Virus genome (UHGV): UHGV-0200293 | From: a virus | Length of the DNA stretch: 24,650 nucleotides | Strand: one strand, 5' to 3' | Shown here: piece after piece, positions 20,366-20,810 of the stretch | How the letters are laid out: each line of letters begins with the position of its first letter | How positions within the stretch are numbered: position 1 is the stretch's first letter | Notes under the pieces: generated by a model | What the model saw: only the letters and a program-made list of their open reading frames with translations | What the model was told of the DNA's origin: nothing | Database searches by the model: none | Made by a program: the position numbers and the translations under genes

Positions 20366-20385
20366 CAATTCAATAAATTGAATTG
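20366..20385. promoter_or_regulatory. Perfect 9-bp inverted repeat, an operator-like site 20 nt upstream of the lipoprotein start
   Basis: Sequence is CAATTCAAT-aa-ATTGAATTG. Confidence 0.45.
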
Positions 20386-20405
20386 CAGCATGACGGGAAA
20401 CATAT

Positions 20406-20810
20406 ATGATAAAATTTTTAATGTTGATTGTGGTGACATTAACCATTGCAGGTTGCTCCCCTCTTGCACCTACAGGCTGTCAGAAAAAAAACGCAATGGA
20501 ATCATGCGAATATAAGAGTTCAGGTAAAGTGTCGGATAAGGATATATATGGATGGTACTCATCCAGAATAAAAAAAGCTTTGGACGCAGCACTTACAGAG
20601 CCCCATGCCTGGAATGGTAAAAGATGTGACGCTCATCTGGATTTCAAAGTCGATGGCACCCTGCAAAATTTTATCGTGAAAGGTGGTGACAAAGATTATT
20701 GCGCTGCATTGCAAAAAGCTTCTGAAAGAGCGACATTCCCGGCGTTTACCGATCGGAGAGTTTACTTTAATATGGGTTCCGCAAGATGGAACTTCGAAGG
20801 TCAGCCATGA
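20406..20810 (+). CDS. Lipoprotein with a TolA C-terminal (domain III)-like domain
   Basis: The signal peptide has a lipobox LTIAGC. The C-terminal part, GKRCDAHLDFKVDGTLQNFIVKGGDKDYCAALQKASERATFPAF...VYFNM....NF, aligns by eye with E. coli TolA GKTCTLRIKLAPDGMLLDIKPEGGDPALCQAALAAAKLAKIPKPP..VYEVF....DF. Both Cys residues are included. Confidence 0.75.
   Translation: MIKFLMLIVVTLTIAGCSPLAPTGCQKKNAMESCEYKSSGKVSDKDIYGWYSSRIKKALDAALTEPHAWNGKRCDAHLDFKVDGTLQNFIVKGGDKDYCAALQKASERATFPAFTDRRVYFNMGSARWNFEGQP

Follow-up and report, generated by a model that had tools for sequence, protein, structure and literature searches.

A predicted stand-alone TolA domain III lipoprotein in a Citrobacter koseri prophage remnant, a candidate decoy for TolA ligands

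What does a gene for the lone C-terminal domain of TolA do in a prophage? The question is raised by the viral genome UHGV-0200293, whose 24,650 nucleotides are called the window throughout. An initial annotation, made from the sequence alone, had marked positions 20366–20810 as a prophage moron encoding a lipoprotein similar to TolA domain III (TolAIII), possibly a decoy. The marked stretch contains a single long open reading frame (ORF), 20406..20810 on the plus strand; position 20366, given as the start, is that of an inverted repeat, and the gene itself begins at 20406. We propose, at a probability of roughly 40%, that the protein is a non-energised competitor, or decoy, for TolAIII ligands, which would confer tolerance to Tol-dependent bacteriocins or filamentous phages; while the fold is well supported, we infer the functional steps.

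The domain and its membrane anchor

Residues 48–126 match the Pfam family PF06519 'TolA C-terminal' (E=9.2e-11; 42.2 bits, the gathering cut-off being 25 bits) at profile positions 13–92 of 96. Of the PDB sequences searched with phmmer, only TolAIII chains match (2x9a_B, 3qdp_A, 1s62_A, 1tol_A; E ~1e-5). The best of them, 2x9a, is the complex of TolA with g3p of phage IF1, and it also ranks second in the structural list of Foldseek. In the alignment C74 corresponds to TolA C363 and C99 to C388, which form the disulfide pair of TolA, and the GGD motif at 93–95 corresponds to TolA 382–384. None of C74, C99, G94 and D95 varies among 22 homologues; the C74–C99 disulfide is putative. The earlier alignment by eye of the C-terminal part with E. 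coli TolA domain III, including both cysteines and GGD, proved correct both by Pfam and by phmmer.

The AlphaFold2 model, for which the 22 homologues served as input, has pLDDT (predicted local distance difference test) values of 89–97 for residues ~45–134. It consists of a helix (47–62), two strands (73–80 and 86–94), a second helix (96–106), a short helix (117–123) and a last strand (125–131). The nine best Foldseek matches in the PDB are all TolAIII, the TonB C-terminal domains being far lower in the list. The leading ones, 3qdr_A and 3qdp, superimpose over 84 columns with the root-mean-square deviation (rmsd) of 1.0 Å and the TM-score on the target of 0.86–0.91. A structure comparison had been recommended in the initial annotation, and AlphaFold2 with Foldseek indeed returns the TolA-III fold. 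Over the E. coli domain III structures (residues ~325–421; 1TOL, 1S62, 2X9A, 3QDP, 3QDR) the rmsd ranges from 1.0 to 2.1 Å, and the disulfide pair, the GGD turn and the C-terminal beta3 edge strand are common to both proteins. On the profile matches and the model, membership in the TolA C-terminal domain family is secure.

At the same time, the protein is not a TolA. It is 27% identical to the E. coli domain, and both the transmembrane domain I and the helical domain II are absent: the 134 residues hold a signal peptide, then only a 28-residue tether before the domain. The NCBIfam models of full-length TolA match only through their last ~100 profile positions, and the scores lie far below the equivalog cut-offs (TIGR02794 and NF007065; 33.5 vs 59.45 bits and 42.2 vs 213 bits). 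Since domains I and II are missing, energisation by TolQR is impossible, and the protein cannot replace TolA.

The beta3 strand is, by the alignment, the counterpart of TolA A415–K420. The segment is among the best-conserved parts of the family, with M123, G124, S125, R127, W128, G132 and P134 invariant, and is made of strong beta-formers without an internal proline.

The N-terminus reads MIKFLMLIVVTLT-IAGC17 with Ser at +2, so that the lipobox with this serine, claimed earlier, is plainly present in the sequence; it is also kept in the homologues. The layout is M-I-K3, FLMLIVVTLT, I-A-G-C17, with the mean hydropathy of 2.8 and agreement with the lipobox pattern [LVI][ASTVI][GAS]C. Having the charged n-region, the hydrophobic h-region and the lipobox of a signal peptidase II substrate, the protein is a predicted lipoprotein. 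The lipobox Cys is invariant in the 22 homologues, and the +2 residue is S, A, T or V, never Asp. By the Lol avoidance rule of the Enterobacterales, a lipoprotein without Asp at +2 is sorted to the outer membrane, and from the +2 Ser the outer-membrane location is predicted here. TolA reaches the outer membrane from the inner one, whereas the window protein would be lipid-anchored there.

In the tether, P19, P22, K27 and C34 are invariant in the 22 homologues and C25 is nearly so; the model confidence of this region is low (pLDDT 45–53). The exact protein is present in 131 blocks of public assemblies.

A possible decoy and its mobile relatives

The anchor and the domain suggest the following course of events. 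After cleavage by signal peptidase II and lipid anchoring at Cys17, the protein would reside in the inner leaflet of the outer membrane, and the ~28-residue Cys-containing tether would hold the stand-alone domain III in the periplasm, where the outer-membrane anchor would place it at the point at which incoming translocation domains emerge. The exposed beta3 edge strand would capture TolAIII ligands by beta-strand addition, candidates being the translocation domains of group A bacteriocins and the pIII N1 domain of filamentous phages. Captured ligands would be stranded beneath the outer membrane, short of the energised TolQRA machine, and the carrier cell would be tolerant.

In TolA, beta3 binds the TolB N-terminus, colicin N and g3p-N1 by backbone-mediated, sequence-promiscuous beta-strand addition, and a single proline substitution at D418 or K420 abolishes the binding (PMC4339652, PMC8928145). 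An experimental precedent for a decoy or dominant-negative effect, as well as for leakiness, is engineered periplasmic TolAIII, likewise an exported domain III uncoupled from TolQR. It is, however, soluble, overexpressed and of the host's own sequence, whereas the window protein is natural, diverged, predicted to be lipid-anchored, and has its own promoter-like site. Levengood-Freyermuth and colleagues are said to have found in 1993 that the periplasmic TolA C-terminal domain makes cells tolerant to colicins and reduces infection by f1.

A functional likeness, without homology, is seen with the lipoproteins of the Cor, Llp and TraT type, which are small, encoded by mobile elements of phage or plasmid type and, expressed from the resident element, block the entry of competitors; unlike the proposed mimic of a periplasmic hub, they act on outer-membrane receptors (FhuA, OmpA). 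The superinfection-exclusion lipoprotein Cor (PHROG 1119) did appear as a candidate relative (E=0.074) and was rejected, as the match covers only residues 1–37, that is, the signal peptide.

The decoy is favoured by the company that the relatives keep on IncI-complex plasmids, on klebicin plasmids (together with a TonB C-terminal domain) and in the moron slot between Q and holin genes, although this evidence is circumstantial. The E. coli clade denoted here type 2 (132 aa) is 37–39% identical to the window protein over the full length and has the same lipobox, the PLxP / C-x8-C tether motif and the domain. It is a clade of its own that resides on mobile elements; its partner in E. coli prophages is type 1, a 143-aa short lipoprotein with the TolA C-terminal domain (CTD). 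The tandem, type 1 preceding type 2, lies between a Q-like gene and the holin gene in phage mEp460_ev081 and in the ttcA-site prophage of E. coli C9, directly upstream of the holin–lysozyme–Rz cassette. Of 5426 complete E. coli genomes, 1269 (23%) contain the type 2 DNA, at 825 chromosomal and 525 plasmid places.

On the IncI-complex plasmids (IncK2/Z, IncI1/B/O) type 2 directly follows the relaxase genes nikA-nikB and precedes trbC; on the pO157-like IncF plasmids it is close to toxB. The IncI-complex conjugative plasmids specify I pili, and phage IF1 is I-pilus-specific. In total, tblastn finds relatives on 1279 plasmid records, about half of which are Klebsiella plasmids with a 123-aa TolA-CTD lipoprotein. 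In a common 10-kb Klebsiella ColRNAI plasmid the latter stands in tandem with a 121-aa secreted TonB-CTD protein, the pair being divergent from an operon (SOS-type) of tRNase klebicin, immunity and lysis genes. The Klebsiella TolA-CTD protein is 30–32% identical to the window protein and has the TolA-like NAPLDFRP at beta3. The tether motif with its cysteines is missing from it, and its gene accompanies a bacteriocin operon. Like the window protein, the Klebsiella pair consists of short, exported, stand-alone C-terminal domains of energy-transducing proteins exploited by bacteriocins, and it resembles a set of mimics of the two hubs of bacteriocin import.

The same neighbourhoods may be read differently. 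The protein could modulate the Tol-Pal system of the host by binding the TolB N-terminus (or Pal, or CpoB) in competition with TolA, loosening the outer membrane and promoting vesicle formation, leakage or the release of phage or bacteriocin instead of blocking entry. Indeed, TolB uses the same beta3 site of TolAIII, and TolAIII exported by means of a signal sequence causes leakage of periplasmic protein from E. coli (Wan and Baneyx 1998, as used in PMC6195910). The E. coli relatives, situated downstream of Q and immediately upstream of holin–lysozyme–Rz, would be made late, and those on the klebicin plasmids adjoin a cluster with the release (lysis) gene. However, ~4.6 kb separate the window gene from the lysis cassette, the two are on different strands, and the gene has its own promoter-like site; moreover, in this prophage the Q gene is broken and the early region deleted, and the chromosomal orthologues described below have no lysis context at all. 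The Klebsiella genes are divergent from the bacteriocin operon rather than within it, and a TonB-CTD partner is better suited to the blockade of import than to the tuning of Tol-Pal. We consider the modulation of Tol-Pal unlikely as the main role, though a real alternative.

Chromosomal orthologues and the prophage remnant

The closest homologues of the window protein (60–73% identity) come from Pantoea, Serratia, Enterobacter, Erwinia, Yersinia, Rouxiella, Pluralibacter and another Citrobacter. They retain the lipobox, the tether motif, the disulfide pair and the near-invariant C-terminus MGSARW-x-x-x-GQP. The commonest Pfam families among the 102 ORFs surrounding 13 orthologue loci are LysR, GNAT, MFS, TetR and hydrolases. 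A profile search in 1.8 billion representative proteins yields only 108 clusters, mostly lipoproteins of 120–150 aa consisting of the TolA C-terminal domain.

These orthologues are one reason to consider that the gene encodes an ordinary accessory periplasmic lipoprotein of the Enterobacterales, in which the TolA/TonB-CTD fold is reused for a ligand that has nothing to do with colicins or phages, its presence in the prophage being hitch-hiking at a rearranged junction. In six other genera the closest orthologues stand alone on the chromosome, each in a different neighbourhood; beta3 is diverged, the N-terminal Cys motif is absent from TolA, and the stretch of the window around the gene has no counterpart in sequenced phages. 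On the other hand, the gene has the GC content of 43–49% regardless of the host and occupies a different locus in each genus, which are signs of horizontal mobility, and in the next clade, which has 37–39% identity and shares the N-terminal motif, the great majority of the genes reside on plasmids and prophages. On balance, we find such an ordinary accessory role unlikely, yet deserving serious attention.

Returning to the decoy, several observations weigh against it. The orthologues from Serratia, Pantoea, Enterobacter, Rouxiella, Erwinia and Yersinia are outside prophages, solitary and in ordinary chromosomal neighbourhoods that differ between the genera, and none of the 102 neighbouring ORFs at the 13 loci carries phage or plasmid hallmarks. 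The identity to E. coli TolAIII is 60% for type 1, 48% for the Klebsiella plasmid protein, 34% for type 2 and lowest, as given above, for the window clade, the most diverged from TolA among the compared clades. The divergence affects the binding strand: ARWNFEGQP stands against APLDFKP of TolA in beta3, and FPAF against IPKPP. The TolA-like beta3 is retained by type 1 and by the Klebsiella plasmid protein, but not by the window clade, and thus the ligand of the latter may differ. Among 50,697 phage records, tblastn yields one match, mEp460_ev081, and a Foldseek search of the BFVD viral structures yields none at E<=1e-3; hence the gene is untypical of the phage isolates sequenced. The defence models of PADLOC-DB 2.0 match neither the window protein nor its E. 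coli relatives at E<=0.1. Finally, a decoy that sequesters TolB would be expected to cost the host its envelope integrity.

The window itself is a lambdoid prophage in the reverse orientation. The minus strand carries the tail and head genes, the portal, lysozyme, Rz, the Q antiterminator, NinG, DUF1367 and DinI, while on the plus strand DUF4060, excisionase (xis) and integrase (int) are followed by a host response regulator. The public assemblies with the identical protein are C. koseri, and the element is situated between purB/hflD and phoPQ. In a megablast search of 5,426 E. coli genomes the locus had no match. The prophage is defective. The Q gene (16580–17263, minus strand) is broken by an in-frame stop (DEHQKA-stop-LLWSY), so the late-gene activation is probably lost, and as no repressor, cro or replication genes are found anywhere in the window, the early region has been deleted. 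Directly downstream of Q, at the position of the late promoter and leader, there is an isrJ-like Hfq-binding small RNA (16488–16564, minus strand; Rfam, 55.5 bits at the gathering score of 37).

The TolA-like gene lies next to a region of scraps (20850–21705) that contains DUF551 fragments (20962–21249, minus strand), the N-terminal 27 residues of a methyltransferase-like PHROG (20879–21016, minus strand) and, on the plus strand, a truncated RecT-like gene of which only the final ~146 residues, the last third, are left. The homology to the phage collection ends at ~19557 on the left, in the DinI region (mEp237/SEN34-like), and restarts at ~21270 on the right, in recT–DUF4060 (Gifsy-like), and the stretch 19560–21270 has no match in the 50,697 phage records. 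Thus the gene belongs to a 1.7-kb orphan stretch at a deletion junction, where the DinI gene of the nin region is joined to truncated recT, and with such flanks the ancestral gene arrangement is unreadable. Its orientation against the neighbours, as initially described, holds for the left side; on the right, DUF4060, xis and int are on the same strand.

Such surroundings may also suggest a non-functional relic, that is, a decaying fragment of tolA or a chance ORF. Conservation within the species is of no help as evidence for selection, and we do not use it: identity among nine C. koseri loci is ~100% throughout, for the gene as well as for its upstream region and the junk that follows it. Between genera, however, the ratio of non-synonymous to synonymous substitution rates (dN/dS) is 0.07–0.25 for the orthologue pairs with dS<1, indicating purifying selection and a functional protein. 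The ORF is full-length, the lipobox and the fold-defining residues are intact, 41 columns are invariant across the 22 homologues, and the modelled core is of high confidence. Given the purifying selection, a dead relic is very unlikely.

The earlier statement that the gene is a prophage moron is partly right. It does reside in a defective lambdoid prophage, and it has two features of a moron, namely the differing composition (42% against 48.7% GC) and, as weak evidence, a promoter-like site of its own; but the junction is scrambled and the closest orthologues are not in prophages. The term is fair for the appearance of the gene. The gene is kept in every decaying variant of the prophage seen, including the variants located via the integrase, and closeness to the int end may be the sole cause of this retention.

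The gene is AT-rich, in agreement with the initial description: its GC content is 42.2%, local 300-nt windows go down to 34%, and the whole window has 48.7%. The promoter-like site (20342–20369) is the only one on the plus strand here; as such matches are not enriched over shuffled sequences, this is weak evidence. The perfect 9-bp repeat at 20366–20385 overlaps the -10 hexamer and the predicted transcription start. The whole 24.6-kb window has four perfect repeats of this kind, two of them in the 276-bp intergenic region, and by chance a 276-bp region of the same composition would contain one or more with a probability of 0.9%. The repeat is identical in the nine C. koseri loci, as is everything around it, while the other repeat (20291–20317) has a single-base difference in two of the nine. 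Two stronger interpretations of the 20366–20385 repeat were rejected. It is not one of several repressor operators, as the window has no second copy at up to three mismatches, and it is not a family-wide regulatory site, as the upstream regions of 16 orthologues from other genera are unrelated. Hence of the operator suggested earlier the perfect repeat stands, its role as an operator being a guess (single in the window and unconserved outside C. koseri); it is a reasonable candidate operator, nothing more. No terminator-like site was found downstream of the gene on the plus strand.

Three other features of the locus may be mentioned. On the other side of the same 276-bp control region there is a divergent ORF (19914–20129, minus strand; 66–71 aa), which has no family match and is annotated in only some C. 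koseri assemblies. A 65-aa ORF (20807–21004, plus strand) shares ATGA with the TolA-like gene, overlapping its stop codon. Public C. koseri assemblies annotate this ORF as a gene; neither Pfam nor any other family matches it, and it is probably spurious. At the far end of the prophage, a gtr-like cassette of O-antigen modification (271–2914, plus strand) consists of a family-2 glycosyltransferase gene (271–1227) and a gene for a 566-aa protein with ~10 hydrophobic segments (1214–2914); in a related locus (L022) a GtrA gene is situated upstream of the cassette. The coordinates of the main features and of the relatives are given in Table 1.

Table 1. Features of the TolA-like gene in the window and positions of the relatives in other loci
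Feature	Position	Strand	Basis or source
TolA-domain-III lipoprotein coding sequence, stand-alone, 134 aa	20406..20810	+	ORF list, ATG start; PF06519 above gathering cut-off
Predicted lipoprotein signal peptide, residues 1-17, lipobox I-A-G-C17, +2 Ser	20406..20456	+	direct sequence reading
Tether, residues 18-45, motif C17-x-PL-x-P-xx-C25-x-K-xx-A-xxx-C34	20457..20540	+	homologue alignment
TolA domain III fold, residues 46-134	20541..20807	+	AlphaFold2 model, Foldseek, alignments
beta3 edge strand, residues 125-131, SARWNFE	20778..20798	+	AlphaFold2 strand; aligned to TolA ..APLDFKP
sigma-70-like promoter, TTTAAA, 16-nt spacer, TACAAT	20342..20369	+	consensus scan, 9/12 matches
Perfect 9-bp inverted repeat CAATTCAAT-aa-ATTGAATTG, candidate operator	20366..20385	.	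repeat search
Second perfect inverted repeat, 11-bp arms, AGTAATGAAGT-ctgtc-ACTTCATTACT	20291..20317	.	repeat search
Type 1 + type 2 pair, E. coli lambdoid prophages	L001 4416-5390; L041 4422-5396 (ttcA site)		
Type 2 plasmid loci (IncI-complex and pO157-like)	L035 5989-6384; L036 3555-3986; L040 4953-5384; L039 4953-5384		
TolA-CTD + TonB-CTD pair	L037 5451-6184		Klebsiella 10,060-bp ColRNAI plasmid NZ_CP053877.1

Significance of the family

The domain assignment is already public: RefSeq names all these relatives 'cell envelope integrity TolA C-terminal domain-containing protein'. In PHROG the family is entry 5772, with 'unknown function'. No functional study of any stand-alone TolA-CTD protein was found in the full-text literature searched, which lacks many subscription papers, and to this extent the search bears out the initial statement that no function had been characterised. 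Stand-alone TolA-CTD genes were merely noted on a cloacin-type plasmid (PMC10269471). The case described here is a natural, uncoupled TolA domain III with a predicted lipid anchor, for which we propose a decoy mechanism that has an experimental precedent.

The reason for interest is how widely the larger family has spread over plasmids and prophages, with thousands of relatives. One may tentatively go further and suppose that short exported proteins made of the TolA C-terminal domain, joined on some plasmids by TonB counterparts, form a widespread and so far unrecognised class of defence proteins, mimics of the import hubs carried by prophages and by conjugative and bacteriocin plasmids. Beneath the outer membrane, such mimics would intercept bacteriocins that depend on Tol or Ton, as well as filamentous phages specific for a pilus; the C. 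koseri gene would then be a divergent member of the class, one that is also established in chromosomes. We regard this generalisation as possible rather than probable.

Macromolecule import has classically been studied with Tol-dependent bacteriocins and filamentous phages as models, and bacteriocins are in development as narrow-spectrum antibacterials. The known means of protection are immunity proteins, receptor loss and tol mutations. If the decoy is real, an imitation of the TolA hub that occurs in nature and moves horizontally, possibly with an equivalent for TonB, would be a new route of resistance. This route would already be present in a large share of clinical enterobacteria (relatives in 23% of the complete E. 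coli genomes, on ~1,280 sequenced plasmids and on the common 10-kb Klebsiella klebicin plasmid), the plasmids concerned including the pO157-like ones and the IncI-complex resistance plasmids. Moreover, a conjugative plasmid could then shield its host from the phages that use the plasmid's own pilus.

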